From positions 4,453 to 68,452 of the forward strand of contig JBBRBD010000003.1 in assembly GCA_038206135.1 (NCBI GenBank): a stretch of DNA of 64,000 nucleotides. Reading direction: 5' to 3'. Of this stretch, positions 1-57,395 are shown piece by piece. Every line of letters begins with the position of its first letter. Positions within the stretch are counted from its first letter, which is position 1. A program made the position numbers and the translations under genes. Source of the stretch: Patescibacteria group bacterium (lineage in GTDB: Bacteria; Patescibacteriota; Microgenomatia; UBA8517). A model generated the notes under the pieces. It was not told the DNA's origin. It did no database searches and saw nothing but the letters and a program-made list of their open reading frames with translations.

Positions 1-3000
1 AATTCTCTTGTATTAGATGCAACAACATCAATCGCATTTGGAGCTTCAAATTACAATTTTACCTTTACAAACAATGGAACTGGAAATGAAATCCACAACC
101 TAAGTTCAACTGGAGACTTACTTATTCAAGATAACGGCACAACATTTGCAACATTTAACAATGCAGGTGGAATTGATTTCAGCCCAAATGGCACAAGTAA
201 CCTAACAATCAATACAGACAGCGACTCTGCGCTTAAAGTTACGGGACTCGCCTCAGGTTCCGGTTCAGCAATTTGTATTGATGGAAGTAACAATATCGTA
301 ACCTGTACGACAGGTTCGGGTGGGTTGTCAGGGAGCGGTACAAGCGGTCAAATTGCTTATTTCAATGGAGCAACATCTGCAACTTCAGAAGCTAGCGGTT
401 TCAGCTGGGACGCAACGAATAATAGACTTGGAATCGGAACGGATACACCAAACGCAGTTTTGCACGTAAGTAGCGCCTCGATCGGAAAAGCACTTGCAAT
501 ATTTAATGAAACAGGTGACCAAGATATATTGACAGCAAGTGCTTCAGGCACAACAGTTTTTACAGTGGCACGCACAGGCCAAATAACTGCTAGTTCATCT
601 ACTGCAAATGCTGATAGTATCAAAATATCTCCAAATGCATCAGGTTCTAACACTTTCACGGGTACACTAACATCAGCTGATTTAACTGGAAATGTTACCT
701 GGACTCTCCCCGACTCATCTGGCACAGTAATCCTTTCAGGACACACATTTACAGGGGATGTTACGGGAACACTCGGAGCTGGTGGAACAACAGCACTTAC
801 TATTGCCGCCGACTCTGTTGCTCTTGGAACTGATACAACTGGAAACTACATAGCAAGTATTACCGGCAACAGCCAAGTTGCAGTCAGCGGCTCAGGATCA
901 GAGTCTGCTGCCGTTTCCCTTTCCATCAATGGAAACTCGATTGATACCGTACAACTGGCAAGTACCTTAACTTTTTCAGATGGCGACCTAATTGATCTTT
1001 CTTCAATAAATACGAGCTCAACAGTTGAAGGCTTACTATTACCTCAGGCAACAAGTTGCAGTGCCGGAACTGCCGAGGGTCAGGTTTGTTGGGACACAGA
1101 TAATGACTTCCTTTCTGTTGGAACAGGAAGTGGAACAGTAGCATTACTTGGAAGCACAAGCTCGTTGTTTACGCTTGCCGCAACATCTGGCTCATCACAA
1201 ACAATAAGCGCTGGAGACACGGCAACCATTGCAGCGGGTACTGGTATTACAACAACAGCAGGATCAACAGATACAGTCACAATTGCAGCAACACTCGGAA
1301 CCTCTATTTCAAATGCAGAAATAGATGCAAACACAATTAATTGGGATTCAATTGCAGATGCGATGACTCTTGATGCAAACACGAGTATTACCGCAGCTAG
1401 TGCTCTCTCACTCACCATTGGAAATAATGTAACACTCACAACCAGTGGTACAGGATCAATTGTCGCAACAGATCTGAGTTGTACTGACTGTGTTGCTTTA
1501 GGATCTGAAACAACCGGGAACTATGTAGCAACAGTGACCGGCAATAGCCAAGTTGCGGTCAGCGGCTCTGGATCTGAATCAGCTGGAATTTCCCTTTCAA
1601 TAAATAACAACTCAATTGACACAGCGCAACTTGCAAGCACACTTACCTTCGCTGACGGTGATTTATTAGATCTTTCTTCGATTAACACAAGCTCAACAAC
1701 CGAAGGTTTAAAGCTTCCCCAAAATGCAACAGCCTGTTCGAGTGGAACAGCGGAAGGCCAGGTTTGTTGGGATAGCAGTACAGACACGTTATATATTGGC
1801 AACGGAACGAGCGCCACTGCAGTTGGAGGCGGATCATCATTTACGAGCTTTACAGCAGCTGGTGACAGTGGAAGTAATCAGACTATCTCAAACGGTAACA
1901 CATTGAGTGTGCTTGGCGGTTCAAATGGAATTGACACAGTCGGCTCTGCTACCGACACAATCACCTTGAATCTGGATACGACTGAAATTGGCTCAACTAC
2001 TTTTGGCACTGGATCTGCAATCACCTGGACCTTTGATGCGTCAGGAGGAACTGACACGACCATTGCATTTGGAAATGATACTCAGACTTTTACTGCAGGC
2101 ACAGCTGCTTTTAGCGGAACGGTAAATCTTTCAAGCGGTGTACTTCAAACTGGAGGCACACAACGATTAAGTAATGCTGGAGCCCTCAGCAACATTACCG
2201 GTTTTACACAAACAAGTGGATCTTTTAATTCAACACTTTCTACGACAAACGCGGCGACATTCAACTCAAGTACTGCAAATTCTGACAGTTTAGCGCTCCT
2301 TCCTCAATCAACCGTAAATACCAACAGCTTCACAGGGACAATTACAACAGTGGATCTTACCGCAGCACGTACATGGACACTTCCAGATGCAACCGGAACC
2401 GTGTGTTTAACAACAGGCAACTGTGCAGGCTCAGGAGGAGGAATTACTGGGTCTGGAACATCAGGTCAGATTGCATTTTTTAATGGAGCGGGAACAATAA
2501 CATCAGAGTCAACAGGTTTTTCTTGGGATGCGACAAATAAAAAACTAGGAATTGGAACAGATACTCCGAATGGACTACTTCAGGTAACAGGTGCAGCTGT
2601 TGGAAAGTCCCTTGCAATATTTAATGAAACTGGAGATCAGAACATATTGACGGCAAGCGCTTCTGGCACAACCGTTGCATCAATTGATAGAACCGGACAG
2701 ATTACTTTGAATACAACTACAGCAAATGCAGATAAACTCGCTCTTGTTGGTAATGCGACAGGTAGTAACTCGTTTACAGGCACAGTCACACCGACAGATC
2801 TTACTGCTAACAGAACATATACACTTCCAGACGCAACGGGTGACTTTTGTTTGAGTAGTGGAAACTGTGCCGGAGTTGGTGGAGTTGGAAATGTGAGTGG
2901 TCCAGGCTCTTCGACAGACAATGCAATTGCAAGGTTTGATTTAGCAACTGGAAAGATTATTAAAAACAGCGGTGTAATTATTGATAACTCAAACAACATT

Positions 3001-6000: not shown

Positions 6001-8883
6001 GGTGCAACATCTGCAGACACAGTGAACATTGGAACAGGTGGAACTTCAGCCGATACTATTAACATTGGAGGCAATGCTTCAACAACTGCTTTGAACTTAA
6101 CATCAGGAACGGGCGCACAAACATTCAGGAGCTCTGTTGCAACTGGTACAACAACAAGTGCTGCTTGGGTATTTAATGATACTGCTTTGACTTCAGGAAC
6201 AGGTTTATATTTGACTTCTTCTGGTTCAAGTCAAACATCAGACAAGCTTGTCGACATCTCCCAGTCAGGAGTTACAACAGGGTTCACTGGTAACTTACTT
6301 AATCTTAATTCGACAAGCACAACGGGTGCAGCAACATTTATAAATCTTACGGCAAACGCTTCCACAGTTGGAACTGGAGAAAGTATTGCAATGAATGCGC
6401 TTACAACCGGTAAAGTGCTTGGGTTGAGTAGTAGCTCAACTGCAATCACAACTGCTGGCTCAAACATAGGCTCACTCCTCGACTTAACAGCAAGTGGTGC
6501 AATGACTGCATTTACTGGCTCAATTGCAAACATTAACGTCGCAAACGCAAGTAACGCAGGAGACACTGGAAACGCACTTAACATTAACCTTGGTGGCGCT
6601 GCTCAAATAATGAAAGCTCTAAACATTGCAGATGCTACAACTGGAAACCTTTCAACAACTGGTGCTGTTGCAATCAGTATGAGTGGCGCCCACACCGGAA
6701 CTGCAATCGCTGTCACAGATGCGACTGCTACTGGAAAAATCCAAACGCTTATCGGCAATAGTCTTACCTCGGGCACCGCAGTACAAATTAGTTCCACGGC
6801 AACCGGACTAACTACTGCAGGTTCAAATATTGGCTCGCTATTTGACATTACGGAAAGTGGTGCAATGACTGCTATGACTGGAAACATTGCAAACATAAAT
6901 CTTTCTGGAGCAAATGCTGTCGGTTCAACTGGAAACGCACTTAACATTAACATCGCAGGAACTGCGCAACTCATGAAAGGTATTAGCTTTACTGATGCAA
7001 CTACTGGAAACCTTGGAACAACAGCAGGTACCAGTGGTGGAGTGTTATTCTCATTTACAGGGGCACATACCGGATATGGACTTCAGGTTTCAGATGCAAC
7101 AGCAACTGGAACGGCATTTGCATTGAATGCAAACTCACTTACTTCTGGAGTCGGTCAAAGTATTCTCTCAACAGCAACTGGAGTAACATCAGGTAACTTA
7201 CTGAGCTCATCTCTGACTGGTGCATCTGCTTTTACCGGAAATCTTAATTATTTTGATTGGACTCCTGGAAGCTCAACAACTGCAACAGGAGATTTACTCC
7301 GTGTTCATATTGGAGCAAACGGATCAACAAGTGGATATCTATTCAATGTTGTAGATGATACAACTTCTGACTTCTCTGTTTCAGAAACACAAATCACCAG
7401 TGCGTTGCCACATCAGTTCACGGCAGCTGGTGACGTTTCAATGGCATACGATCTACAATTCACAAATCAAACTGCAAGCTATATTAAAAGTAATGCACCA
7501 CTCTACTTACAAGCTGGAGAGACGTTTGAAAACAACAATTTAACATTACAAACGTATGGAACGGGTGCCATAGTTTCAAGTGGTAAATTCTCATTCGGTT
7601 CGCAAAACACGCTTACTGCAAATAGCACTACCCCATCTGTAACTACTGGCGACTATTTTGTCACGGCAAATACATCCACTACACTTATTTCAAACTTCAC
7701 CAGTGGAACAGTGGGTCAAGAGATTTTTGTAAACATTGCCGATGCAAACACAGATTTTGATTGTACAAGTTCAAATATTGCTTGCGGAACTACAGATATC
7801 ACAACCCCTGCAAGCGGTGACATCCTACACTTTATCTATGATGGAACAAATTGGTCGCTCCTTGGCTGGATGCGAAATACAGCAAATAACAGTAACCCAA
7901 CAAACGGTGTTGACTTGGCAGAGTTCTATCCAAGTTCAGAATCACTTCAGGCTGCTGATGTAATTAGTGTAGATTCAACAAATCCAGTCACCATTAAAAA
8001 GGCTACAGATGCAGACGGTCAAAAGGTGTTTGGAGTAATTTCAACCCAGCCAGGGCTTATTCTCGGTGAAGATGCAGTGAACTCATATAAAGTTGCTCTT
8101 GCCGGACGGGTCCCAGTAGCAATCGATCCAGCTTCAGAGACAATTCAAGCTGGCGACCTGATTGGAGCCTCGAGTGTGTCAGGGAAAGCAAAGAAAGTAA
8201 CAAGCGGATATATCATCGGACGTGCCTTAGAGGCTTGGACCACAGGTTCGTCAAATCAACTAACAGTATTCGTGAATCCAATTTATGTGAACGGTGACTC
8301 AATTGATAACAGTCAGTTTGACTCTAGACTCACTACACTTGAGAACAATTTTGCTACGGTAAGCGCTTCACTCACCGCTTCAGCAAGTGGAGTGCTCGCA
8401 AACTTTAGTGATGTACATACAAATACTCTTTCAGTACTTGGAGACTCTACACTTTCTGATACAGTTATCAATGGTAAGTTGAATGTGGGAGCTATGGTAT
8501 TTGATAATGTAGATCAAAGTATCAATGCAATTGGCACTTTAAAGATTCAAAGCCTTGCACTTGGGAATATAGAGCTTGAAAATGGACTCGTTACGATTGA
8601 CACACTTGGTAATGTTGTAGTGAATACAATAACTGCTCAGAAGTACAAAGTAGCAGGAACTTCTGCAGGAACAAACACAATGGGCGCTGGTACCAACCAA
8701 GTTACTATAAATACAACTGCGGTCACTGCAAACTCGCTCATCTTTGTAACACCGAAGAAGACTATTGCTCACCCAATGGCTGTAACTCAGAAAGTAGATG
8801 GTACGAGCTTTACCGTTTCAATAAGCAGTATCGAACTGCAAGACATTGAATTCGACTGGTGGATAGTCGACAAGACTAACTGA
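1..8883 (+). CDS. Giant repetitive cell-surface protein, 5'-partial (>2,950 aa). Thr/Gly/Ser/Asn-rich and probably beta-helical or fibrous. Several internally duplicated ~100-130 aa modules plus a distinct C-terminal domain.
   Basis: The 325..8883 ORF begins at TTG, but the same frame stays open and compositionally identical back to nt 1, so the gene continues upstream of the window. Duplicated modules include SGQIA[YF]FNG...FSWDATN..LGIGTDTPN (nt ~325 and ~2447) and LG.[DE]TTGNY[IV]A..TGNSQVAVSGSGSES...TAEGQVCWD (nt ~820 and ~1495). Further pairs are SFTAAGD..QTIS...TITLNLDTTEIGSTTFGTGSA (nt ~1843 and ~3619) and VSMAYDLQFTNQTASYIKS.APLY (nt ~5330 and ~7440). There are paired Cys motifs (CLTTGNCAG). 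The protein has essentially no hydrophobic core segments and no LPXTG motif. Confidence 0.8.
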   Translation, partial: NSLVLDATTSIAFGASNYNFTFTNNGTGNEIHNLSSTGDLLIQDNGTTFATFNNAGGIDFSPNGTSNLTINTDSDSALKVTGLASGSGSAICIDGSNNIVTCTTGSGGLSGSGTSGQIAYFNGATSATSEASGFSWDATNNRLGIGTDTPNAVLHVSSASIGKALAIFNETGDQDILTASASGTTVFTVARTGQITASSSTANADSIKISPNASGSNTFTGTLTSADLTGNVTWTLPDSSGTVILSGHTFTGDVTGTLGAGGTTALTIAADSVALGTDTTGNYIASITGNSQVAVSGSGSESAAVSLSINGNSIDTVQLASTLTFSDGDLIDLSSINTSSTVEGLLLPQATSCSAGTAEGQVCWDTDNDFLSVGTGSGTVALLGSTSSLFTLAATSGSSQTISAGDTATIAAGTGITTTAGSTDTVTIAATLGTSISNAEIDANTINWDSIADAMTLDANTSITAASALSLTIGNNVTLTTSGTGSIVATDLSCTDCVALGSETTGNYVATVTGNSQVAVSGSGSESAGISLSINNNSIDTAQLASTLTFADGDLLDLSSINTSSTTEGLKLPQNATACSSGTAEGQVCWDSSTDTLYIGNGTSATAVGGGSSFTSFTAAGDSGSNQTISNGNTLSVLGGSNGIDTVGSATDTITLNLDTTEIGSTTFGTGSAITWTFDASGGTDTTIAFGNDTQTFTAGTAAFSGTVNLSSGVLQTGGTQRLSNAGALSNITGFTQTSGSFNSTLSTTNAATFNSSTANSDSLALLPQSTVNTNSFTGTITTVDLTAARTWTLPDATGTVCLTTGNCAGSGGGITGSGTSGQIAFFNGAGTITSESTGFSWDATNKKLGIGTDTPNGLLQVTGAAVGKSLAIFNETGDQNILTASASGTTVASIDRTGQITLNTTTANADKLALVGNATGSNSFTGTVTPTDLTANRTYTLPDATGDFCLSSGNCAGVGGVGNVSGPGSSTDNAIARFDLATGKIIKNSGVIIDNSNNITGINSIDTISTSATALGFAGAGTITSTGTSALTLDSGTTGVVNIATGTSGKTINIATDNTNADTINIGSALDSVAVLGTSTITGATTVNGSGSAATNIGTGTSTGTITIGRVTGTDLALNDANWNVTGAGAANFVSFGATTPGTGAFTTLSSTGNTTIGDANSDTLTINAGSSGTGIILADTSFANCSTLSTVSNIVTCGAAGGSMSSFTAAGDTGTPQTISDSNTLSIVGGTNGIDTVASATDTITLNLDTTEIGSTTFGTGSASTWTFDASAGTDTTIAFGNDTQTFTTGTATFTGNVAVNGGSLTTTASTATLFNTNAATLSIGGASTTALNIGTGNTAYTAINLGTGTGGNAINIGTNNTNADTIGIGSALDTLTIAGTTGVTGATTINGSGSSATNIGTGTSTGTITIGRVTGTDLALNDANWNITGAGAANFVSVGATTPGTGAFTTLSSTGATTIGNNSSTVAIDSTSWDISSAGVASGFTGLTSSGTINFSGLTASSGVYTDGSKNLTSTAPTSGTLGYWSRTGTTLSPSNAGDAVTTTGNISTTSTGTITSAGLLTGQLGLTASGAAINLNAASNFVTNINTGSSTGSVTIGGGSNALATNSTTLDMAATGAIQINSSAGTIGIGNNAVAQAINIGTGAAARTITIGNNTGASALALTSGTGSQSFTSSATTNNAFAFVDNALTSANLLALSSTSTALTSGKIGSFDWSPTSATTATGDLFNINIGANGTTTGNIFSVSDSGSNLFTVSETGITANVPASFTSAGDVSMAYDLQFTNQTASYIKSKAPLYIDTGESFESNDLTLRTYNSGKIVLDNVSGGYATLSFATKATTGDPSTCAIGDVYFNSTDATIKACTTVNTWATLNGAAGGTITGSGTTGTLPKFTSGTAIGDSLISESGSTISLSTAATITASSLATFTSSTALSLNPNTGTSYTLGTTATTLDLFNATPTTINFGGAATTALNIGNGSGAYTAINLGSGSGTHTINIAGTGATSADTVNIGTGGTSADTINIGGNASTTALNLTSGTGAQTFRSSVATGTTTSAAWVFNDTALTSGTGLYLTSSGSSQTSDKLVDISQSGVTTGFTGNLLNLNSTSTTGAATFINLTANASTVGTGESIAMNALTTGKVLGLSSSSTAITTAGSNIGSLLDLTASGAMTAFTGSIANINVANASNAGDTGNALNINLGGAAQIMKALNIADATTGNLSTTGAVAISMSGAHTGTAIAVTDATATGKIQTLIGNSLTSGTAVQISSTATGLTTAGSNIGSLFDITESGAMTAMTGNIANINLSGANAVGSTGNALNINIAGTAQLMKGISFTDATTGNLGTTAGTSGGVLFSFTGAHTGYGLQVSDATATGTAFALNANSLTSGVGQSILSTATGVTSGNLLSSSLTGASAFTGNLNYFDWTPGSSTTATGDLLRVHIGANGSTSGYLFNVVDDTTSDFSVSETQITSALPHQFTAAGDVSMAYDLQFTNQTASYIKSNAPLYLQAGETFENNNLTLQTYGTGAIVSSGKFSFGSQNTLTANSTTPSVTTGDYFVTANTSTTLISNFTSGTVGQEIFVNIADANTDFDCTSSNIACGTTDITTPASGDILHFIYDGTNWSLLGWMRNTANNSNPTNGVDLAEFYPSSESLQAADVISVDSTNPVTIKKATDADGQKVFGVISTQPGLILGEDAVNSYKVALAGRVPVAIDPASETIQAGDLIGASSVSGKAKKVTSGYIIGRALEAWTTGSSNQLTVFVNPIYVNGDSIDNSQFDSRLTTLENNFATVSASLTASASGVLANFSDVHTNTLSVLGDSTLSDTVINGKLNVGAMVFDNVDQSINAIGTLKIQSLALGNIELENGLVTIDTLGNVVVNTITAQKYKVAGTSAGTNTMGAGTNQVTINTTAVTANSLIFVTPKKTIAHPMAVTQKVDGTSFTVSISSIELQDIEFDWWIVDKTN
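3194..3478 (+). repeat. Intragenic repeat unit D1 inside the giant surface-protein gene (~85% nt identity to D2)
   Basis: Protein segment INIGSALDSVAVLGTSTITGATTVNGSGSAATNIGTGTSTGTITIGRVTGTDLALNDANWNVTGAGAANFVSFGATTPGTGAFTTLSSTGNTTIG. The DNA is almost the same as 4106..4390. Confidence 0.8.
4106..4390 (+). repeat. Intragenic repeat unit D2 (copy of D1)
   Basis: Protein segment IGIGSALDTLTIAGTTGVTGATTINGSGSSATNIGTGTSTGTITIGRVTGTDLALNDANWNITGAGAANFVSVGATTPGTGAFTTLSSTGATTIG. There are long runs of identical nucleotides shared with 3194..3478. Confidence 0.8.
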
Positions 8884-9207
8884 TAAATAGATATACTTCC
8901 TCAATATGAAGTAATGATCGATTTATATAAACAATGCAGTAACCACATACTTCGTCAGGTAGTTTGCATTAAGTATCATCACTTCATTTATCGAATGTAA
9001 CTTCTACCTACTGTTTTAGAATATAGTATTTTTAATACTTAGAATATCTTTATGTATATTAATATATAAAAGTATGCGAATCTATCTCAAAGTAACACAG
9101 GTCTGTTGTTGTCTTAAGATGCGTAAATTCAATGTTGTTGGTTGCTAACAATAGCTTAATTACAAAAAATGCTAACACTGAGAACTTCTCTATCCAATAA
9201 TAGTACT

Positions 9208-9233
9208 CCCCGGACTCACGTCCGGGGTTTCTT
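9208..9233 (+). terminator. Rho-independent terminator: 8-bp GC stem CCCCGGAC/GTCCGGGG, 4-nt loop, TTTCTT tail
   Basis: Read directly in the sequence: ccccggac tcac gtccgggg tttctt. It lies ~325 nt downstream of the giant gene's stop. The T-tract is on the plus strand only, so the terminator is unidirectional. Confidence 0.6.
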
Positions 9234-13300: not shown

Positions 13301-14831
13301 GGTAACAGGAACTATTCCAACGTCACTCGTTTCATCGACCACTTCAAATTTTAAGCTTGGGCAAGGTGATGACACAACACCAACGGCATTAATTTCATAT
13401 ATTGATGAACTAAAAATCTATACTTCAGCGCTTACCGCAGATCAAGTTAAAATCGAAGCGCAATATGGAAGCACTATAGACTTTGGCACAGGACAGAATG
13501 AAACTACACAAATTACCGGAACAGCAGAAACTGGTCCAATTCTATATCTTCCGCTTGATGAAAATACGGGAACTACTGCTGCAGACAAAAGTGGAAACGG
13601 TTTGAATGGAACACTTACAAACGGTCCTGTTTGGTCGCTCGGAAAAATTGGAGAGGCTGTTTTCTTTGACGGCTCAAATGATCAAATTCAAGTTTCACAC
13701 AATTCTCTCCTAAATGTAGTGACTGGCTATACTGTTGAAGGATGGGTGAAACCTACTGCTGGTAATGGATCATATCGAGATATTCTGGTAAAAGGGATAG
13801 ATACTGCTGGCGGCGAAACATCTACTTTTTATATGCAGATTACTGACACAAATCAATTTGAAGGAGGTCACAAAGCAAACACCTTTTTCAGATATGCGGA
13901 CTCGACGACAACTGCAAGTTTAAACACTTGGTACCATGTCACCATTACGAATAACAGTAGTAACACGAGTGTCAAAATATATATCAATGGAAAACTGGAG
14001 GCAACAACAGCATATACAACAGACGCACCACTCACTCAAAGCAGTCCTTTATTAATTGGGGTTGGAAATGGTTCCAATTATAGACCATTTACTGGATATA
14101 TTGATGATATTAAGGTCTATAACTACGAACGAACACCTGCACAAGTTGCATATGATTACAATCGTGGTGCACCTATCGGGTGGTGGAAATTTGATGAAGG
14201 CAATGGGACTATTTCAAATGATTCATCTGAAAACAGTTATACTGGCACGCTGACAGGGACTCCTTCATGGGTTGATGGCAAGTTTAACACTGGAATCAGC
14301 TTAAACGGCAGTAGTCAGTACTCAACTGTTACTGATGCTGCAAATATTCGATTTGATAGCGCAACTCAAAATTTTTCTGTGTTTGCATGGGTGAAACGGG
14401 CTGCAACAGGATCTGAAATGGACATTGTGAGCAAGGAAGATGCAGACAATGATGGATATCGACTTGAATTTACAAGTGGAAACATTGTTCGTTGTAGTGC
14501 AAATAGCACAGACGTGGATAGCACTGCTACGATTACAGATACGACTACTTGGCATCTGGTTGGTTGCAGTATGAACAGAAGTGGAACCGGGCAAATATAT
14601 ATTGATGGATATCCTTCTGGAACAGCCACCTCAATTAGTGCAATTACCATGTCCACAACGGCAAATATTTTAATAGGTGCCCGCTCATATACCACCGCGA
14701 ATTACTTTAATGGAACAATTGATGGTGTACGGCTCTATAATTACGCGCTTACATTGTCACAAATCAAAAAACTTTATAATGAAGGTTCAAGCGTTCGTTT
14801 TGGACCAACACAAGGAACTCCAGCGCCATGA
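10368..14831 (+). CDS. Membrane-anchored surface protein with an N-terminal DUF2341-like domain followed by ~7 tandem Laminin_G_3 (ConA-like lectin/glucanase) domains
   Basis: There is an N-terminal TM helix (IGIFLIAILLPVIILSLY). After it comes WTYRMKVPI...CGDIRF...GNPTVANGF, which is DUF2341-like. The LamG_3 hallmark then repeats: GYWQFDE..GTT..D.SGNGN.GT at the start of each unit and [IL]DD[VI][RK][VI]YN[YR]..[ST]..Q[VI] at the end. Confidence 0.75.
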   Translation: MSDYPKSLNITKHFLKLIKKVHLRTWIGIFLIAILLPVIILSLYKSQSSQAAWFDDGWTYRMKVPITAHTGAETNKYFSVTVDTSDTTKFQADCGDIRFLNSSGDLLNYYISSGCSSASTIIHVLVPSFPAGASNYYMYYGNPTVANGFSSSDFSAGTGITVGTVGSEEKGTGPILYWSMDEGYGTTTYDSTSNRNNGTLTGAWESEQYCVTGKCIFLSNSSTQGLGTATVSPLSKLTSGSVSIWAKYTGVNRYQDIFNLYRGADTTATGFELNFDNRTSGGVNIKGTASKDGSLKWEFTVASADFNAITETNKWHLYTLVHDGTTPSLYIDGKPINITFTTTTDKTVWFKAFLTDATSKADTLAIGLVVANNTPFNPATAFFDDFKIYPYARSATQLKADYISRGTNEGVSAQFGNTDQKYLSDGLVAYWKFDESSSTASDSSGNGLTLTNNGTTPYTDGKFGNAPTYNGSTRYFSTATTISGVQSVSFWTYPGSTTDNFINLASGVYVSASGGTLSATGFTNPTIYVNGVQTTTIAASVWQYITITTSSSISGSAVNIGRANSTVAVNNSRTDDVRFYNRILSAQEVSKLYNWAPGPIGYWQFDENTGTTLHDASGNGNGATITDTANVGKWTSGQYGSAYDMEGNETSDVMALDNTIDLGTRNTIAYWVYFVNSTNSPVIGGNYSTTEGYMSYRESTTLYSRPGTGVSAASVSYTTAINTWYHIEVVRDNTSIKFYVNGIQAGSTQTLDANPNFTLYSLTNYVTGVTNYPLEGRLDDVRVYNYPRSSQQVIEDMNGGHPAGGSPLGSQIMYWKLDEQNGNTINNSGFGTSTYNGTNSGATWLQNNSCKVNGCLYFDTTTDSVSAGDVAYIDGLTGFTTSFWLNPQTLATNKMIVSKANTTTQRVFQIKTDDTTAAKLKVMISSSAADTSNYCVTASSVLSASTWQHVTVVYDGTATTGNDQRVKVYVNGAPTSCTVTGTIPTSLVSSTTSNFKLGQGDDTTPTALISYIDELKIYTSALTADQVKIEAQYGSTIDFGTGQNETTQITGTAETGPILYLPLDENTGTTAADKSGNGLNGTLTNGPVWSLGKIGEAVFFDGSNDQIQVSHNSLLNVVTGYTVEGWVKPTAGNGSYRDILVKGIDTAGGETSTFYMQITDTNQFEGGHKANTFFRYADSTTTASLNTWYHVTITNNSSNTSVKIYINGKLEATTAYTTDAPLTQSSPLLIGVGNGSNYRPFTGYIDDIKVYNYERTPAQVAYDYNRGAPIGWWKFDEGNGTISNDSSENSYTGTLTGTPSWVDGKFNTGISLNGSSQYSTVTDAANIRFDSATQNFSVFAWVKRAATGSEMDIVSKEDADNDGYRLEFTSGNIVRCSANSTDVDSTATITDTTTWHLVGCSMNRSGTGQIYIDGYPSGTATSISAITMSTTANILIGARSYTTANYFNGTIDGVRLYNYALTLSQIKKLYNEGSSVRFGPTQGTPAP

Positions 14832-17800
14832 GTAAAAAGTCATTTTTCAAGTCTCACCTTTCAAAAGTTAAACTACGTACATATGTTGCACTGGGATTAT
14901 TATTTATATTACTTCCCGTTATACTTATTTCCCTTTTTAGACCACAAAACTCGACTGCTACATGGATGGATGACTCATGGACATACAGAATAAAAGTTCC
15001 AGTAACTGCACACACAGCAGTTGAAACGAATAAATATTTTACCAAAACTGTAGACACGAGTGACACGACAAAGTTTCAATCAGATTGTGGAGACATACGC
15101 TTCACTGATGCAAATGGAAAAGTTTTGCAATATTACATTGCTTCTGGATGTAGTAGTGCTTCAACTGTTGTTCATGTACTAGTTCCCTCTTTCCCAGCAG
15201 GAGCATCGGACTACTATATGTATTATGGTAATGTAACCGCTGCAAACGGCTTTAGCTTAAGTGACTTTACGGCCGGAAGTGCAGTGACTGTAGGAAGTGT
15301 GGGAGGTGAAGAAAAAGGAACTGGGCCAATTTCCTATTGGAGTATGGATTCAGGAACTGGAACAACTGCCTATGATTCACAAAACGTAAACAATGGCACC
15401 TTTGGCGCAAGTACTGCCGCTCCAACTTGGCAAACAGAAGACATGTGTGTAAGCGGAAAGTGTATATACTTTGATGGCAGTAATGACTATATAGAAAAAA
15501 CTTCTGCAAAAAACCTCCCATTAGGAGCGACTCCTCGAACGGTTGAAGCTTGGGTAAGATACAACGGAAGTATTGCCTATCAATATATTTTGGCTTACGG
15601 GACACAAAGTAACGGGAATTGGTTTGGATTAGCAATCGAGTCAACAGGGAAAATATATATAGATACCTGGTCAAATGACACACCAGGAACAGCAACCACG
15701 ATTAATGACAATAAGTGGCATCATGTTGCAGCAACATACAATGGCAGTACTTCAGTTAGTTTCTATGTCGATGGAAATTTTGTTGAAACGGACAGTATTT
15801 CCGCTCCAGCAAACACAACCGGAACAACATTGCGAATTGGGAGTTCTACTTCAAATGACTATTTTTTGAAAGGTTATATTGACGAACCAAAAATTTACAA
15901 TTATGCAAAAACCGCTGCTCAAATAAAAGCCGCATATAACTCAAAAGGCTCAAATGAAGGTGCGACATCAACCGTTGGTAATGCTAATCAAAAGTTTCTA
16001 TCAGATGGACTCGTTGGATATTGGAAAATGGATGAAAGTAGTTGGACAAACAATTGTTCAGCTACCTCTGTTACTGATAGTTCAGGAAACGGAAACAACG
16101 CAAAAGCATGCCCTGCCTCAACCGGCCCGACAGGTGCCGCAGTTGGGAAATTTGGTAATGCAGGAAGTTTTGATGGTTCTGATGATTATGTTGAGGTTCC
16201 AAACACAACAAACATCCATCCCGGCGACACTTTCACACTCGCAGCCTGGGTAAAACGAAGCTCAACTGGCACATTTGATGCAATCTTTGGAACTGCTACA
16301 AATGATTTCCAACTCGCGTTTGTCAATGACAATATAAAGCTTTCAAAACAATCAAGTAGTGATGTTTTTGTCAGTACGAGTACATACACAGATACAACAA
16401 GTTGGCACCAAATTGTTGCAGTCAAAAATGGTTCTCAATTTGCAAAAGTATATTACGATGGAGTCGAGATTGCAGGAACATTCACAAATCAAACAATATC
16501 AGCGGGTTCATCGTCTGTTTACATCGGTGGGGATTCTGTTTCAAATGATGTTTTTGCAGGTTCCATTGATGAGGCTCGTATATACAATAGGGCACTTTCA
16601 GCCCAGGAAGTTCGTAAACTGTACATTTGGGCTCCAGGGCCAGTGGGTTATTGGAATCTAGATGAAAAAACTGGAACTACTGCCTCAGATACAAGCAGCA
16701 ATAATAATACGGGGACATTAACCAATGGCCCCACGTGGAGTTCTGGAAAGTTTGGCTCAAGCGTTTCATTTGATGGTGTCGATGATGTAGTCGATGCTGG
16801 ATCTGGGTCAACCCTTGATGACATGCCTGCCATGACTCTTGAAGCATGGATTTATACAAGGTCGCTCGGCGGTGGTGGATTAGGTCGTATTATGGAAAAA
16901 CAATCGAGTGTCACTGATAACGGTTTTAGATTCCAATTAAATACAAGTAATGCCATTATTTTTAGTCAAGATTACTCGACAACAGATATTAGTCATGCAA
17001 CTGCAACTAATGTTTTCGCACTTAATACATGGCAACATGTGACGGCTACCTGGGATGGGTCCGCTACTGCACAAAATATTCATATTTATGTTAACGGTGT
17101 TGAGGTTTCTTCTTATATAACAACAACAAACGGTTCGGGATCCCGAGTAACAGATGCTGCGCAAAACCTTCGCATTGGTAATACAAATAATGGATCAAGA
17201 GGCTTTGATGGAATGATTGACGATGCTCGGATTTACAATTATGTTCGTACTCAATCTCAAGTTATTGAAGATATGAATGCAGGTCATCCAACTGCTGGAG
17301 GTTTTGTCGGTTCATACACTTCATATTGGAATATGGATGAGTCGAATGGAACAACAGCACATGACAGTAACAGCACACTTGCAAATGACATCACGCTTTC
17401 AACCTCCTCATGGAATCTTTCAGGAAAAACAAATAGTGCATGGAACGGGGTTGGAACAAATTGGCTCTCTCGCGCTGATGATGATGATTTTGATTTCACC
17501 GCCTCAGATAACTTGTCTATCTCTTTGTGGTTTAAATCTGACTCAGCAAGTAATCCCGGAACGACGGAATATTTACTAGATAAATCCTTGTCAGGTGCTG
17601 TTCAAGCCGCCGGATATGCGATCTACGCAAAAACGAGTGGTTTGGTATGTTTTGGTATTGATGATGACACAACCTGGTCCCCGGGCGATGAGGCATGCAG
17701 TACCAGTGATATATATGATGCAACTTGGCACCACATAGTGGTAACTAAAACCGGTACCAGCGAAATTCGAATATACGTCGATGGTTTAAGTAGTGGATCT

Positions 17801-19321
17801 GACATTTCACTCGCCACAACAGGAACATTGACTAACTCAAAAATTTTATATCTTGGTGATCGCGATGGCGTGGACAACAGTGATGAATTTAATGGAGACA
17901 TTGATGAAGTAAAAATATATCGTTCAGTATTAACTCAGGACCAAGTTTTACTGGATATGAATGCGGGCTCTTCACAAAATTTTGGTGTTACTGCATTAAC
18001 AGAAGCATCACAGTTTTTAGATGGCGCTGGTAACTCACCTGTCGGGTATTGGAATTTGGATGAAAAAACTGGCACATCCGCAAATGATAAAAGTGGAAAT
18101 GAAAACACTGGAACACTTAACAATACCCCTACTTGGGGATCCAGTCAGATGTGTAAAACAGGTTCTTGTCTCTCATTCGTAAGTAGTAGTAGCCAAGATG
18201 TGACGGTCAGTACTACTATTTCAGGAGTAAAAACTGTTTCCTTTTGGGTCTATCCCACCTCCACAACGTCAAGCATCTTACAACTTCAGGCAACAGGCGC
18301 AGTTGCAATTACGGCCAGTAGTGGAACAATTTCATTTACTGGTTTTACCTCACCGACAAAATATATAAATGGTGTGCAATGTACATCTTGTACGCTTACC
18401 GCAAACACTTGGCAATACATTACCGTTACGACGGGTACCTCAATTAGTGCATCACAAATTAAGTTTGGGCATTCGAATAGTACCTATTTTGACGGCAGAA
18501 TTGATGATATAAAATTCTACGACTACGCCAGAACACAGTCCCAAGTGTCATATGATTATAACCGGGGCTTACCAACAGGCTGGTGGCAATTTGATGAATG
18601 CCAAGGCTCAACAGCATATGACAATAGCGGAAATGGAAATAACGCTACTCTGACATATGGTGGCGGAACATACACTCAAACGGGAACATGCAATTCAGGA
18701 ACTTCGTCAGATGCGTGGTTCGGAGGGGTGAGCGGAAAATTCAATAGTTCACTTGCCATGGACACAACAACTGATACGATTAGTGTCGGAGATATTAGCA
18801 TGTATGCATTTGACCGCAGCAACGCCTTTTCTCTTTCTGCTTGGGAAAAAACCACAACAAATGGTGCTGCGACACTTATTTCTAAACAAGACAGTAGCGC
18901 TCCTTTCACTGGTTGGAATATGCAAACTGGTTCAAATGGATTTGTCTATCTTCAATTGGTAAACACCTATAGCACCAATGCACTCGAAGTTCACAGCACA
19001 AACGACGTGAATTATTACGATGGAAATTGGCATCTAATTACCATGACATATGACGGCTCAAGTACTGATGCAGGTGTAAAAATTTACATGGATGGAAATG
19101 CAGTGCCAACGACCGCTTCATTCACCAGTACTCTTGCCTCAGCTATTACAAATTCTATATCTGTGTATATAGGGTCTAGAAATGCAGTTGGACAGAAATT
19201 TGGTGGACAGCTGGACGACGTCCGAATCTACAACTATGTTTTGTCTGCCACACAAGCTAAACAGATATATTCCGGTAATGGCGGTGCTGTGTTCTATGGT
19301 CCACCTACGGGCCAGCCTTGA
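14828..19321 (+). CDS. Paralog of the upstream gene: TM anchor + DUF2341-like domain + ~7 Laminin_G_3 domains
   Basis: The N-terminus is nearly superimposable on 10368..14831 (WTYRIKVPVTAHTAVETNKYFTKTVDTSDTTKFQSDCGDIRFTD...). LamG_3 end motifs repeat (IDEARIYNRALSAQEV, IDDARIYNYVRTQSQV, LDDVRIYNYVLSATQA). The start ATG overlaps the upstream stop (ATGA), indicating translational coupling. Confidence 0.75.
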   Translation: MSKKSFFKSHLSKVKLRTYVALGLLFILLPVILISLFRPQNSTATWMDDSWTYRIKVPVTAHTAVETNKYFTKTVDTSDTTKFQSDCGDIRFTDANGKVLQYYIASGCSSASTVVHVLVPSFPAGASDYYMYYGNVTAANGFSLSDFTAGSAVTVGSVGGEEKGTGPISYWSMDSGTGTTAYDSQNVNNGTFGASTAAPTWQTEDMCVSGKCIYFDGSNDYIEKTSAKNLPLGATPRTVEAWVRYNGSIAYQYILAYGTQSNGNWFGLAIESTGKIYIDTWSNDTPGTATTINDNKWHHVAATYNGSTSVSFYVDGNFVETDSISAPANTTGTTLRIGSSTSNDYFLKGYIDEPKIYNYAKTAAQIKAAYNSKGSNEGATSTVGNANQKFLSDGLVGYWKMDESSWTNNCSATSVTDSSGNGNNAKACPASTGPTGAAVGKFGNAGSFDGSDDYVEVPNTTNIHPGDTFTLAAWVKRSSTGTFDAIFGTATNDFQLAFVNDNIKLSKQSSSDVFVSTSTYTDTTSWHQIVAVKNGSQFAKVYYDGVEIAGTFTNQTISAGSSSVYIGGDSVSNDVFAGSIDEARIYNRALSAQEVRKLYIWAPGPVGYWNLDEKTGTTASDTSSNNNTGTLTNGPTWSSGKFGSSVSFDGVDDVVDAGSGSTLDDMPAMTLEAWIYTRSLGGGGLGRIMEKQSSVTDNGFRFQLNTSNAIIFSQDYSTTDISHATATNVFALNTWQHVTATWDGSATAQNIHIYVNGVEVSSYITTTNGSGSRVTDAAQNLRIGNTNNGSRGFDGMIDDARIYNYVRTQSQVIEDMNAGHPTAGGFVGSYTSYWNMDESNGTTAHDSNSTLANDITLSTSSWNLSGKTNSAWNGVGTNWLSRADDDDFDFTASDNLSISLWFKSDSASNPGTTEYLLDKSLSGAVQAAGYAIYAKTSGLVCFGIDDDTTWSPGDEACSTSDIYDATWHHIVVTKTGTSEIRIYVDGLSSGSDISLATTGTLTNSKILYLGDRDGVDNSDEFNGDIDEVKIYRSVLTQDQVLLDMNAGSSQNFGVTALTEASQFLDGAGNSPVGYWNLDEKTGTSANDKSGNENTGTLNNTPTWGSSQMCKTGSCLSFVSSSSQDVTVSTTISGVKTVSFWVYPTSTTSSILQLQATGAVAITASSGTISFTGFTSPTKYINGVQCTSCTLTANTWQYITVTTGTSISASQIKFGHSNSTYFDGRIDDIKFYDYARTQSQVSYDYNRGLPTGWWQFDECQGSTAYDNSGNGNNATLTYGGGTYTQTGTCNSGTSSDAWFGGVSGKFNSSLAMDTTTDTISVGDISMYAFDRSNAFSLSAWEKTTTNGAATLISKQDSSAPFTGWNMQTGSNGFVYLQLVNTYSTNALEVHSTNDVNYYDGNWHLITMTYDGSSTDAGVKIYMDGNAVPTTASFTSTLASAITNSISVYIGSRNAVGQKFGGQLDDVRIYNYVLSATQAKQIYSGNGGAVFYGPPTGQP

Positions 19322-19352
19322 TCCACATCTAACACTAGAATAATATGTAATT

Positions 19353-22016
19353 ATGCGTACTATCTATTTCTTATCACTGTTTTTTTTAATCTTTCTTTTT
19401 ACATTCCCGACTAATATTTATGCTGATGGTACATATTCACAGCTAAACACCAGTGCTGGCTCGACTGGTAGCCCTGATGCTGTTACCTGGTCGACTGGAA
19501 ACCCAATCATGATTGACTCGTTTGGAAAATATATAGTTCCAGTCCAGACAAATGGTGACTCGAACTATCATTTTGTGTTTAGTAATAACGCGGGTTCATC
19601 TTGGACCGAGACCTCAGGCCTTACAAACCCTGGCCGAGTGTCCGCAGTATATGACTCTAAAAACGATAAAATTCACGTACTAAATAGTGGCGGCACAAGT
19701 ACAGGTACCACATACCGAAGGTTTAGTATCATTCGAGATACTTCATACAATATTACCTCAATTATTGTTGATCCAATGCTGACCGCAATGTCTATTGACA
19801 CACAAGGGGTGTGTTCGAGTTTTGACTCAGGGGACCCGATAATTCTTTTTAAAGACAATGGGACAGACCAAAAACTAATTATTTTTTGGTCTGTTACCAA
19901 AACTTGTAGTGCAGTAAGCGTGACTGAAACACGAGCCTCAATGCGAATTTTATCAAATGATTCAAACGATGGCACACAGGGAAACTGGCTTGCATTAAAT
20001 GGCACTTCTGACTCAAGTGGTGCGACAGGACCCGCTTTAATTGCATACAACAAAATTTATACATACACAGGATCTCATGTGTTTTTTCAACAATCGGCCA
20101 TGATTCTTGGAGGAAGCACTGCAAAACAAGATGATATTTATTACTTTAATATTGATGAAAATAGTACACATGGATTTAGGAGACTTGTGTGGAATAGTGG
20201 AAGCAATAACTGGTCGGGATCATGGACTTCTCGCTCTACTTTTGGAGGAGACGTAAACAATGGTCAAGGATATAACTTAAAAAGCGAACTATTAAGTAAA
20301 CCTGTATATGCTTCAGCTCAAGAGAAAGTCTATGTAGGAATTGCCCGATGGCTTGATAACACAAATGGAGACACTCAAAGTATGTATTCTGTCGACAGTT
20401 CTGACACAATTGCATTAGCATCAGACGTCTACTCAGCGAGTGGCACACATTGTATTTATCCGACCTTCGACTTGTCGTATGACAGTAGTCAAGACAAGGT
20501 ATATTTCTTCTACGATATTTCAGGAAGTGGTTCCACTTGTGGAAATGTTTACTACAAAACATACGATGGCTCGAGTCTTTCATCTGCGACTGCTTTCTAT
20601 ACTGTTGCTGATAGATCTGTAGACATTCCAATCACCTATCCATCTCGGTACAACGACAAAATTCTTTTGTTCTTTAGACTAAATAATGCATTAAACTCAG
20701 GTACTCCACCACACGATATTTATTTCGGATCAGTTAGTCTAAACTCAACAAGTACCGCTGCTTCCCAAACAGTATCCACACCCTATGCTGCAACAACATA
20801 TTCAGATTTTTATAAAACATGTACAACACTTTCAACGACACAAGTCATAAATAACAGCGGTGGTGAGATTGCAATTCCTGGTAGTTTTAGGGATGATTTT
20901 GAAACGCCAACTTCTCCATATACAGCGCTTTTTTCTGAGTGGGATCATGGAACCTGGTCTGGTGGTAGTTATACCCCAGCACCAAGTGGAACTCTCCTCG
21001 TTTACGGCGCAAATGGCGCATATATACTAGGGACCACTTCGTATACCAGAAAAGTTCTCGAATTTCGAGCCAAATTTACAGCACACGACTTTCAACATGT
21101 CGGCTGGGCCAATGGCACCTCATTTAATGAGTATTCAATGTTTAGTACAGCGTCTAACGGACAGTTAAACGCGAGAGCTGAAGCCGGAAGTGGTGAAACT
21201 GCAACTGCGCTTGGTTCGTCATACCTAGGCTCATATCACAAATACAAAATCGATTGGGGAACTAGTGACTCGAAGTTTTATATAGACGATACTCTTGTAG
21301 CTACAATTAATACATCAAACGCGAGCGGAATGTATATGATAGCTTCAAATAACACTACAACATCAGGCTCAGATCTAACAGTAGACTGGATGCGAATATT
21401 AAATTTCCCTTCAACCACCGGCACATATCTTTCTTGCCCGCTTGACTCACAAGTGGCTGGAAACATTTGGGGGGCGCTTACTTTTAGCTCGACACTCCCA
21501 ACAAGTACAGCACTTACAGTGAAAACAAGAACTTCATCTGATAACAGCACTTGGTCTTCATATTCGTCAGCCATAAGTAGTGGAGACACAGTGTCAAGCT
21601 CGCCGGATAGATATTTACAATATCAAGTAACCCTAACAGGAACCTCATCGGATACCCCTACATTTGATTCAATTTCCCTTCCATTCGCGTCTCCAACACC
21701 GTCACCAAGCGCAACCACTACATCTACTCCAACAGCATCAACCTCTCAGGTAAGTGGTGCACCACAATGCAACGCAAGTACTCCTTTAGGAATTCCATAT
21801 ATTTCTGAAGCGATGCCAATAAGTTCAACAGAACTGAAGCTTATTTATAGTAATTGGAGTAGCTATTACACGATTGAATATGGTGAAAATCAAACAACAT
21901 TTACGAATGCTGTTTCTGGAGTTCTTGGAGGAAGCTTTAATATAAAAGCATTAAAGGCAAATACTACTTATTATTTTAGGGTTGCTGAGAAAAATGATTG
22001 CACAATTGGAGCATGA
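19353..22016 (+). CDS. Secreted 887-aa protein: cleavable signal peptide, a possible BNR/Asp-box-like motif, a central ConA-like (GH16/LamG-like) beta-sandwich region and a C-terminal FN3-like domain
   Basis: Signal peptide MRTIYFLSLFFLIFLFTFPTNIYA. The motif FSNNAGSSWTE resembles an Asp-box (S-x-D-x-G-x-T-W). The 520-690 aa region (…KYKIDWGTSDSKFYIDDTLVATIN…LTVDWMRILNF) looks like a concanavalin-like fold. The C-terminus (…ANTTYYFRVAEKNDC) is FN3-like. Confidence 0.5.
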   Translation: MRTIYFLSLFFLIFLFTFPTNIYADGTYSQLNTSAGSTGSPDAVTWSTGNPIMIDSFGKYIVPVQTNGDSNYHFVFSNNAGSSWTETSGLTNPGRVSAVYDSKNDKIHVLNSGGTSTGTTYRRFSIIRDTSYNITSIIVDPMLTAMSIDTQGVCSSFDSGDPIILFKDNGTDQKLIIFWSVTKTCSAVSVTETRASMRILSNDSNDGTQGNWLALNGTSDSSGATGPALIAYNKIYTYTGSHVFFQQSAMILGGSTAKQDDIYYFNIDENSTHGFRRLVWNSGSNNWSGSWTSRSTFGGDVNNGQGYNLKSELLSKPVYASAQEKVYVGIARWLDNTNGDTQSMYSVDSSDTIALASDVYSASGTHCIYPTFDLSYDSSQDKVYFFYDISGSGSTCGNVYYKTYDGSSLSSATAFYTVADRSVDIPITYPSRYNDKILLFFRLNNALNSGTPPHDIYFGSVSLNSTSTAASQTVSTPYAATTYSDFYKTCTTLSTTQVINNSGGEIAIPGSFRDDFETPTSPYTALFSEWDHGTWSGGSYTPAPSGTLLVYGANGAYILGTTSYTRKVLEFRAKFTAHDFQHVGWANGTSFNEYSMFSTASNGQLNARAEAGSGETATALGSSYLGSYHKYKIDWGTSDSKFYIDDTLVATINTSNASGMYMIASNNTTTSGSDLTVDWMRILNFPSTTGTYLSCPLDSQVAGNIWGALTFSSTLPTSTALTVKTRTSSDNSTWSSYSSAISSGDTVSSSPDRYLQYQVTLTGTSSDTPTFDSISLPFASPTPSPSATTTSTPTASTSQVSGAPQCNASTPLGIPYISEAMPISSTELKLIYSNWSSYYTIEYGENQTTFTNAVSGVLGGSFNIKALKANTTYYFRVAEKNDCTIGA

Positions 22017-38635: not shown

Positions 38636-38672
38636 TGTGTGGTGATACAGCGTCCCAAAAGGCTTTGTGCCT

Positions 38673-39233: not shown

Positions 39234-39379
39234 GAAATAAATGAATTGGCAAAAGATTTACCAAAAATGAAGAATTGATCATTCTATCCTATAAAGGAAC
39301 AATTGTCAATGCACCCAATAGAAAGCAAAAAAGCCAGTGAGTGTCCATCTCACTGGCTTAATAAAAAAACTACTAAAAA

Positions 39380-40102: not shown

Positions 40103-40191
40103 TGTGAAAAATCTCCCTACAAATATACGAATTATGAAACCTTTTGAGTTATGTACTCAAATGAGCTCCACAAGTTACTTACTATAGCATA

Positions 40192-43851: not shown

Positions 43852-43939
43852 CCCTCAACTAACAATATATAAATTATAAGTTCAGGTGATGATGGGGACG
43901 AGTTTTTAATACTCGTCCCCTCATTAGACAATTGAGGTT

Positions 43940-53943: not shown

Positions 53944-57395
<3,452 letters not shown>

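Follow-up and report, generated by a model that had tools for sequence, protein, structure and literature searches.

A conserved Patescibacteria cell-surface locus pairs a membrane-anchored giant protein carrying phage tail-fibre-type modules with DUF2341/LamG-array proteins

We analysed a 64,000-nucleotide (nt) stretch of DNA from a Patescibacteria group bacterium (the window; assembly GCA_038206135.1, contig JBBRBD010000003.1, positions 4,453 to 68,452 of the forward strand), in which the first 22,016 nt encode four large proteins, G1 to G4, that resemble several described systems. Phage fibres carry intramolecular chaperones that nucleate trimerisation from the C-terminus, and the chaperone domain is often shed (PMC4690869). 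The C-terminus of G1 shares with the phi29 pre-neck appendage gp12 (PDB 3suc, 3gqh) and the K1 capsule lyase of a Klebsiella phage (PF24146) the order beta-domain, D-x-A-E-[YF]-[FY] barrel, helix and terminal beta-sandwich. In its Thr/Ser/Gly-rich beta shaft, which contains 'GIGT..P...L.V' motifs, G1 is similar to many tail-fibre-like proteins. Unlike gp12, G1 is encoded at a cellular core locus, has a helix-turn-helix (HTH) and transmembrane (TM) anchor and is 4-5 times longer; unlike phage tailspikes, it has no detectable lyase or hydrolase beta-helix, and chaperone cleavage is predicted only. G1 is also built like transmembrane regulators of the ToxR/CadC type, in which one TM helix separates a DNA-binding domain at the N-terminus, in the cytoplasm, from an extracytoplasmic domain, but its DNA-binding domain is MerR-type and not OmpR-type, and a phage-like fibre of ~3,370 amino acids (aa) takes the place of the small sensor (PMC10269533). 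MyRF, a eukaryotic transcription factor of the ER membrane, resembles G1 in that a single polypeptide unites DNA binding, membrane anchoring and a chaperone of phage origin that trimerises and cleaves itself (predicted in G1); in MyRF the DNA-binding domain is Ndt80-type and the chaperone an S74-type Ser-Lys intramolecular chaperone autoprocessing domain, whereas the chaperone of G1 is G2-like, extracellular and at the far C-terminus (PMC8326128). There is no evidence for common descent of the whole G1 and MyRF architectures.

SPEARE proteins are LamG-rich giant surface proteins of DPANN archaea. Like G2 and G3, they and the large DUF2341/FhaB-containing proteins of Patescibacteria have a very large extracytoplasmic build with DUF2341 and/or LamG domains, and both occur in host-dependent, ultra-small prokaryotes. 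The Patescibacteria proteins are treated as candidates for adhesion or host interaction (PMC11809585). G2 and G3 differ from those reports in their size of ~1,500 aa, their regular 1 + 6 domain plan and their conserved HTH-TM-fibre partner gene. TafC, the minor subunit of haloarchaeal Tat-fimbriae, is also similar in its LamG-type domains, with partial matches (profile ~150-360), but G2 and G3 have no Tat signal, and their size and context differ (PMC11821415). G4 shares an N-terminal propeller followed by a ConA-like sandwich with GH33 sialidases/trans-sialidases, GH181, GH43 and GH32 (Foldseek E 4e-11 to 1e-6), although identity to these propeller and lectin enzymes is ~10%, only one Asp-box-like motif is present, and no propeller Pfam family is matched. 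In the full-text literature that we searched, we found no description of a MerR-HTH/TM/giant phage-type fibre with a G2-type chaperone motif, nor of the pairing of such a fibre with DUF2341/LamG proteins and its fixed chromosomal address; multi-LamG/DUF2341 surface proteins of Patescibacteria are already known in outline.

The four genes are large, uninterrupted plus-strand open reading frames (ORFs) with no frameshifts or internal stops found. The original prediction, made from the DNA alone, had called four consecutive same-strand genes for giant proteins, and these proved intact and free of the frameshifts expected of pseudogenes. It had also treated them as one continuous block; the order and strand are as described, but a non-coding spacer parts G1 from G2. 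The locus is laid out as follows.

1..8883, plus strand: G1, frame open from base 1, 2,960 codons within the window
8884..10367, no strand: AT-rich non-coding spacer of 1,484 nt, with no ORF >71 aa and GC ~0.37
10368..14831, plus strand: G2, 1,487 aa, type-II, with a short basic cytoplasmic N-terminus, TM helix at ~aa 25-44 and DUF2341 at aa 93-147
14828..19321, plus strand: G3, 1,497 aa, with TM helix at ~aa 16-37, DUF2341 at aa 86-139 and six Laminin_G_3 domains
19353..22016, plus strand: G4, 887 aa, predicted to be secreted, with a signal-peptide-like segment at aa 1-24, a ~500-aa beta-propeller at aa 25-520 and a ConA-like/GH16-like jelly roll at aa ~540-780

Topology signals support an extracytoplasmic or membrane-anchored location for all four products. 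Sortase anchoring is ruled out, as none of them contains an LPXTG sorting signal (G1 ends ...FDWWIVDKTN, G2 ...TQGTPAP and G4 ...NDCTIGA). We consider it reasonably probable that the region is a conserved, chromosomally fixed cell-surface module for attachment to, or recognition of, a host cell or polymer surface, and the best reading of the locus is that of a cell-owned, phage-derived adhesion module.

G1 had been reported as unrecognisable, and when the 2,960 aa within the window are scanned whole, no Pfam or NCBIfam family is matched. Using the last 331 aa of G1 in a HMMER search of 1.84 billion representatives, we retrieved P0094, a public protein of 3,556 aa that agrees residue for residue with the G1 translation of the window over its final 2,960 positions; P0094 and G4 share one 111,643-bp NCBI contig. 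Through this identical protein the gene is known in full: it is 10.7 kb long, and its first 596 codons lie upstream of the window. G1 can now be recognised as a MerR-HTH and TM protein with phage tail-fibre/tailspike C-terminal modules, arranged as follows.

P0094 residues 44-106, upstream of the window: MerR-type HTH (MerR_1 43.1, MerR 41.7 and HTH_17 32.7 bits, all above cut-off)
P0094 residues 165-188, upstream of the window: TM helix, the sole hydrophobic segment in the protein
349..7575, plus strand: mosaic of duplicated modules (chunked self-BLASTP, 41-83% aa identity)
7912..8295, plus strand: chaperone-related beta-barrel (phi29 gp12, Peptidase_G2-type), with the motif D2638-L-A-E2641-F-Y at its start
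8308..8370, plus strand: long alpha-helix (window aa 2770-2790; DSSP helix 371-391 of model m39f6d97e8abb)
8662..8832, plus strand: K1-lyase_C-type beta-sandwich (PF24146) at the extreme C-terminus, ending F-D-W-W-I-V-D-K

This order predicts that G1 is inserted N-in as a type-II membrane protein, its DNA-binding domain in the cytoplasm and an ectodomain of ~3,370 aa outside that is rich in Thr, Ser, Gly and Asn (T 18%, S 13%, G 13%, A 12%, N 8%; K+R+E ~3%). The same start, MerR HTH followed by a TM helix, is present in 7/7 complete orthologs from genome contigs (1,472-3,420 aa). Of the 143 top representatives, 85 are at least 1,000 aa long; 26 of these have this head, and the rest start with a conventional signal peptide. 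Across 27 clusters of <50% mutual identity, conservation of the HTH is strong (sI.eaA..LgVS.kTLRRWE..Gk....RT.GGhRRy), while the linker to the TM helix is not conserved, and the HTH is therefore under selection and no relic. The sole conserved feature between HTH and fibre is a 'VLA' motif at P0094 ~205-209, ~20 residues past the TM helix, which could be a processing or docking site of MerR-TM-fibre proteins.

P0094 holds a DNA-binding domain and at least one TM helix in one protein, which is the criterion for a transmembrane transcription regulator, and the pairing of a MerR HTH with one TM helix defines the topology of this group (PMC10269533). G1 might thus be primarily a contact-sensing, one-component regulator, in which binding or pulling of the fibre, or loss of the ectodomain, alters or frees the HTH, intramembrane proteolysis being one possible route; the window has a gene for a site-2 protease (Peptidase_M50) at 51779-53068. 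The strong purifying selection on the HTH in divergent clusters next to an unconstrained linker, its presence in every complete ortholog and in about three in ten of the long C-terminal-family representatives, and the eukaryotic precedent of MyRF, a membrane-bound transcription factor that employs a chaperone domain of the phage tailspike kind (PMC8326128), all fit such a role. Yet the match to the MerR family, whose members combine the HTH with a dimerisation coiled coil and an effector domain, is limited to the HTH, and G1 has no detected effector-binding domain. With the chaperone at the C-terminus and outside the cell, on the opposite side of the membrane, its cleavage, unlike that of MyRF, cannot free the HTH; signalling along a fibre of ~3,370 aa through one TM helix has no known precedent; and the adjoining spacer has no notable palindrome. 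We regard contact sensing as the primary role as unlikely; it is compatible with an adhesive role and would extend adhesion.

A bolder form of the same idea, to which we give a similarly low chance, is that G1 represents an undescribed class of receptor, in which a phage-derived, self-assembling trimeric fibre of >3,000 residues would be connected via one TM helix to a MerR-type HTH, and physical host contact, or the loss or cleavage of the fibre, would be read by the ultra-small episymbiont as a transcriptional or chromosome-tethering signal. In such a class the LamG-array partners may set the ligand specificity, and some two dozen or more clusters of relatives may be included. It would be a prokaryotic counterpart, in concept and not by descent, of membrane-tethered transcription factors of the MyRF/Notch type.

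The features that make G1 fibre-like lie behind the TM helix. Its body is a mosaic of module pairs at window aa 117-246/823-952, 271-400/496-627, 611-693/1203-1285, 1029-1170/1331-1473 and 1710-1822/2413-2525, with three tandem units of ~121 aa at window aa 2119-2415. The DNA copies of these repeat modules are 65-75% identical, with mismatches evenly spread and without A bias; the duplications are ancient. Behind the body, the Asp and Glu of the barrel motif (D3234/E3237 in full-length numbering) are both invariant in 20 homologs, and self-cleavage is predicted at V|D, nt 7909-7914 (V3233|D3234). In a profile of the G1 family, D-x-A-E-[YF]-[FY] aligns on residue 1 of PDB 3gqh_A, 'DFAEYF' (E 0.0053), and also with 'DYAEYF', the start of the Dpo31 tailspike chaperone D4 (E 0.11); the E-values of these alignments are marginal and the position is exact. 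Chain 3gqh_A consists of 163 residues, gp12 692-854, which we take to be the gp12 autochaperone freed by self-cleavage before Asp692; the cleavage motif in gp12 is Ser|Asp-x-x-Glu. The PDB yielded no sequence matches to the G1 C-terminus or to G4 when each was searched singly, and gp12 was reached by the family profile only.

We then compared predicted structures. An AlphaFold2 (AF2) model of the last 561 aa of G1 (m39f6d97e8abb; monomer) has a predicted local distance difference test score (pLDDT) of 70 and a predicted template modelling score (pTM) of 0.35, with three domains at pLDDT 80-95, including the barrel region at ~90 and the K1-lyase_C part at >90 (model residues 490-560). Its best Foldseek match in the PDB is pre-mature gp12, 3suc (E 7.9e-5), and all significant matches are phage structural proteins. 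In BFVD, 128 viral proteins match at E<=1e-3, including preneck appendage barrels, tail-fibre-like and K1-lyase_C proteins, and those named 'preneck appendage protein barrel' reach a TM-score of 0.63 at 25-27% identity. Virion proteins of PA5oct-like jumbo phages also share 37% identity with the barrel. The helix that follows is a candidate for a trimeric coiled-coil neck, by analogy with the chaperones of phages (PMC4690869), and PF24146 is matched with 34.6 bits (cut-off 27; E 2.6e-8) when the last 360 aa are scanned alone, a match that the whole-protein scan missed. The family signature ending, FDW[FW]I[VM][DE], itself retrieved relatives of G1 in a pattern search. These matches together indicate that the C-terminus of G1 combines an intramolecular chaperone, distantly of the phi29 type, with a helix and then a K1-lyase_C sandwich behind it.

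The G1 C-terminal module is found in 7,609 representative clusters at E<=1e-3 and in 98 at E<=1e-30, and at least 26 long clusters of the family have the HTH-TM head. Gottesman-, Ames- and Woesebacteria, along with other Patescibacteria, have homologs of the C-terminal 560 aa, and some of these homologs carry Peptidase_G2 or Peptidase_S74 chaperone domains; PF11962 (Peptidase_G2) is matched in the homologs P0014 (26 bits, cut-off 25) and P0007 (18.7 bits). The chaperone of G1 itself appears to be at best a distant relative of Peptidase_G2.

In order to place the fibre gene in its chromosomal setting, we surveyed 30 distinct related loci with a G1-like C-terminus and enough downstream sequence, using our own ORF calling and BLAST labelling; loci were scanned with the tighter alignment A3, as the 20-sequence alignment A2 was too divergent. 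In 21 of them, the genes next behind the fibre gene, in the same orientation, are 1-3 DUF2341/LamG-array genes, and in L001, L011 and L016 the stop of the fibre gene overlaps the start of the LamG gene. The recurrent upstream flank is phosphoglycerate mutase (iPGM) with a 256-aa gene, and the recurrent downstream flanks are NDK-M16-ArgRS or Wzy_C/TPR-M23/LysM-Rho. Fibre length (1,472-4,832 aa), the number of LamG copies (0-3) and the presence of G4 vary. The neighbourhood of housekeeping genes is the same in many genomes whose proteins are only 40-55% identical, and the locus is therefore vertically inherited at a fixed chromosomal address; it is neither an accessory island nor a prophage. The original prediction had called it an island, and as a claim for an accessory element this does not survive the synteny comparison, in which the fibre gene keeps one chromosomal position across many related genomes.

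The same comparison bears on whether the phage-type modules at the C-terminus of G1 mark a prophage, a tailocin or phage-remnant receptor-binding genes lying in the chromosome. One contig of IMG/VR does carry the G1 barrel domain, but it is the only match among 2.9 million viral contigs and extends over 107 residues only. Within the window there are no capsid, portal, terminase, tail-tube, sheath or baseplate genes, and the sole integrase-related gene (31644-32468), which matches the N-terminal domain Phage_int_SAM_1 only, lies 10 kb from the locus and is syntenic in relatives. G1 is, moreover, anchored in its own cell's membrane by an HTH-TM head, which phage fibres lack. A phage element, to which we give almost no credence, was rejected on this synteny together with the lack of any other phage gene in the window.

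A second membrane protein recurs next to the fibre gene in relatives. The window encodes a Wzy_C (O-antigen-ligase-like) and TPR membrane protein at 32495-34522 (plus strand), and its orthologs come after the fibre gene, or after fibre and LamG genes, in L015, L017, L018, L034, L037 and L044, directly in 4/6 loci and behind a short gap or a 257-aa ORF in L034 and L017. With 31% Thr+Ser in the fibre, a glycosylation link between fibre and Wzy_C is conceivable. Several of the records surveyed (L014, L016, L017, L020 and L022) are titled 'uncultured Gammaproteobacteria', including an 810,692-bp 'chromosome', OZ246419.1, and these labels appear wrong: L014, L016 and L017 have the Woesebacteria-type order of fibre and LamG genes and a MerR-TM-fibre gene, and L020 has a MerR-TM-fibre gene, while L022 has a short C-terminal match only.

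G2 and G3, the recurrent partners of the fibre, are paralogs as had been proposed, with 35% identity end to end, and the ATGA stop/start overlap that was said to join them is present at 14828-14831. Each has the one hydrophobic N-terminal anchor called from the sequence, and DUF2341 (PF10102) is matched with 38.6 bits in G2 and 45.5 bits in G3 (cut-off 23.4), over profile positions 1-57 of 84 and with the TM helix directly upstream. The expected Laminin_G_3 family (PF13385, cut-off 27.6) is also found, with 321.3 bits in G2 and 422.8 bits in G3, but in six stretches in each protein instead of about seven. Motif counts agree with this number, as there are six [YW]W.[FLM]DE starts in G2 and six I/LD[DE].[RK][IVF][YF] ends in G3; the domains of G2 begin at aa 177, 430, 602, 814, 1060 and 1272. 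Between the two genes, synonymous sites are saturated throughout (proportion of synonymous differences, pS, 0.70-0.75), so the paralogs are old. The TM-proximal DUF2341 part (aa 40-190) has a proportion of nonsynonymous differences, pN, of 0.18 and 65-74% identity, versus pN 0.45 and 25-55% identity in the LamG arrays. This pattern suggests that DUF2341 could be a common foot for anchoring or partner binding and that the LamG arrays bind diverging ligands. DUF2341 has otherwise been noted as an unexplained appendage of ExbB/TolQ-like proteins (PMC12505986).

Two other assignments of G2 and G3 were rejected. Their N-termini, judged by eye, are plain signal anchors without a G|FTLIE-type motif, and not type IV pilin-like. 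Membership of TafC (NF052521) fails at 130.4 and 197.2 bits against an equivalog cut-off of 410 bits, with matches in the LamG part only.

The spacer between G1 and G2 contains a terminator-like hairpin at 9208-9227 (CCCCGGAC..GTCCGGGG, followed by a T-rich tail), and probably holds the terminator of G1 and a promoter of G2-G3-G4; G4 starts 31 nt downstream of G3 in the same orientation. The spacer has no Rfam match at E<=1, no similarity to the rest of the window or to the genes that occupy its position in relatives, and trivial repeats only, with no notable operator-like palindrome. A decayed gene, a mobile element and a noncoding RNA were each rejected as its origin, on the lack of tblastn matches to G1-G4 or to the small genes of relatives and of Rfam matches. 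A spacer of this kind is unusual: at the G1-G2 junction, several relatives have an overlap (L001, L011 and L016), and others have up to ~600 nt between the genes, or a set of two to three small genes, which are 23S_rRNA_IVP/bAvd-like, PDDEXK_3 or a conserved ORF of 112-118 aa. Four-helix-bundle genes of the 23S_rRNA_IVP/bAvd-like type, together with PDDEXK_3 and the 112-118-aa ORF, either separate the fibre and LamG genes or lie behind them in L005 (2133-2516 and 7896-8507), L008 (2987-3628 and 9949-10623) and L010 (2549-3317), and in L005 the LamG gene is interrupted by an inserted ORF of 152 aa. The bAvd-like genes of relatives prompted us to consider a diversity-generating retroelement, which was rejected for this window, as the repeat pairs of G1 are without A-biased mismatches. 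Pfam scans found no reverse transcriptase or Avd among window ORFs of at least 90 aa, and Avd-like genes occur in relatives only.

G4 had been described as a ConA-like and FN3 protein only, a description that overlooked the ~500-aa beta-propeller forming its bulk. An AF2 model of G4 (meb7a289a8707) has a pLDDT of 82.9, and the first Foldseek matches in the PDB are propeller and lectin enzymes, namely trans-sialidases (E 3.6e-11, ~10% identity), GH181, GH43 and GH32. The ConA-like sandwich itself stands: its jelly roll resembles GH16 glucanases by Foldseek, and the GH16 profile is matched with 25.9-27 bits (cut-off 22), at positions 91-143 of 175 only. The catalytic motif ExDxxE is found nowhere in G4, and the jelly roll is thus a ConA-like fold and no competent GH16. 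Behind it lie a Pro/Thr/Ser linker and an FN3-like small sandwich at aa 815-887; the FN3 assignment stays below the Pfam threshold, as fn3 (PF00041) reaches 19.6 bits (E 0.0011, cut-off 25) on aa 801-887 alone and gives no match in the whole-protein scan, although many G4 homologs carry precomputed PF00041 matches. The propeller contains many invariant Asp, Arg and Tyr residues and one Asp-box-like motif (SNNAGSSW at aa 77), and no Pfam family, BNR and sialidase included, matches it at E<=1; GH33 sialidases are marked by a six-bladed propeller with several Asp-boxes, an R-I/L-P motif, an Arg triad and a Tyr/Glu nucleophile. The predicted structure is that of a glycosidase-shaped protein, and any catalysis is putative. 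The family is well conserved in Woesebacteria (45-68% identity at full length), with C-terminal additions that vary between CarboxypepD_reg, FN3, LysM and PG_binding, and it is only loosely linked to the fibre-LamG pair. In L013, from Woesebacteria UBA5941, a G4 homolog (16068-17727) occupies the same position before NDK; it is in two reading frames and without the ConA-like domain, and is either a decaying copy or an assembly error.

The propeller and lectin layout that G4 shares with sialidases and GH43/GH32, its invariant propeller residues and the carbohydrate-binding folds to which LamG_3 and GH16-like domains typically belong raise another explanation, namely glycan harvesting or an envelope coat. 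In that case the fibre and the LamG layer would capture polysaccharides, and G4, as an exo-glycosidase, would feed a fermentative cell; one of the closest G4 homologs, in L002, lies near GH130 genes. We consider this improbable, since no catalytic motif was identified in G4 (ExDxxE is absent, and the propeller has a single Asp-box-like motif and no Pfam family), no sugar transporter or catabolic genes flank the locus, and G4 is absent from most fibre loci.

A dedicated attachment system, as first proposed, remains the most economical reading of the locus, with the amendment that G4 is not a fixed member of it and has a glycosidase-like layout, so that it is not just a binding module. Starting from domain architectures, topology signals, homologies and synteny, all of which are observed, we infer how the proteins may trimerise, be cleaved, extend, select their type of ligand and cooperate. 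G1 would be inserted N-in, with the HTH in the cytoplasm, one TM anchor and ~3,370 residues of beta-structure pointing outward as a fibre. Its ectodomain would fold and trimerise from the C-terminal chaperone, as phage fibres do, and the chaperone may be shed at V|D, leaving the preceding Cys-containing beta-domain as the tip. The fibre would project far past the envelope; a rough extrapolation from phage fibres puts its length at ~100 nm or more. Beside it, G2 and G3 would stand on their DUF2341 feet and provide multivalent, fast-evolving binding to glycans or proteins, and G4 may trim or bind surface glycans nearby.

Several observations weigh against an adhesion module of this kind. Plain adhesion does not explain a cytoplasmic DNA-binding domain. 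In 9/30 loci the fibre has no adjoining LamG gene and abuts NDK-M16, LeuRS or Wzy_C/TPR, and in L007 a LamG/DUF2341 gene has no fibre gene directly upstream. In the window itself, the tight coupling seen in relatives is absent, with G1 and G2 split by 1.5 kb and a terminator-like hairpin. The closest homologs of G4 lie in unrelated neighbourhoods, and most fibre loci are without it. The sequence link of G1 to Peptidase_G2 is weak (3gqh profile match, E 0.005), PF11962 does not match the G1 C-terminus even at E<=1, and the structural comparison used a monomer prediction with pLDDT 70 and pTM 0.35. Ligand, oligomeric state and cleavage are, for every member, what we infer.

Beyond the locus, the window is ordinary chromosome of the small-genome Patescibacteria type, encoding NDK, M16 peptidase, ArgRS, P-type ATPase, LeuRS, Rho, RadA, S1, the site-2 protease and two sortases. 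The nearest syntenic relatives are metagenome-assembled genomes named Candidatus Woesebacteria: NDK is 79% identical to that of UBA925, ArgRS 62% to UBA5941 and Rho 75% to CP066693.1. Complete genomes of relatives measure 0.81-0.92 Mb, and if this genome is sized like them, the full 23.8-kb locus takes up roughly 2.6-2.9% of it. A second surface locus lies at 37970-46009 (minus strand), with the two sortases at 37970-38725 and 45305-46009, a secreted protein of 186 aa with a C-terminal LPKTG sorting signal (38673-39233, minus strand), and proteins of 240, 1,219 and 313 aa without Pfam matches. At 53711-57565 (minus strand), the 23S rRNA measures 3,479 nt against a model of 2,925 nt, with ~550 nt extra (intervening sequence or intron). 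It has tRNA-Ala(UGC) before it and 5S behind it, with no 16S within the window, and a 54-nt inverted repeat (53869-53920 / 57382-57434) flanks the 23S on both sides.

Beyond a few cultivated Saccharibacteria, little is known of the ways in which Patescibacteria reach their hosts and hold on to them. The locus described here defines a concrete and widespread candidate for a host-attachment apparatus, and its fixed address eases its recognition in new genomes. It points to phage tail-fibre assembly modules that were domesticated as cell-owned, membrane-anchored organelles, and it provides a reproducible genomic partner for DUF2341. Should the HTH signal, transcription would be linked to surface contact by a new route, in organisms with very few regulators.

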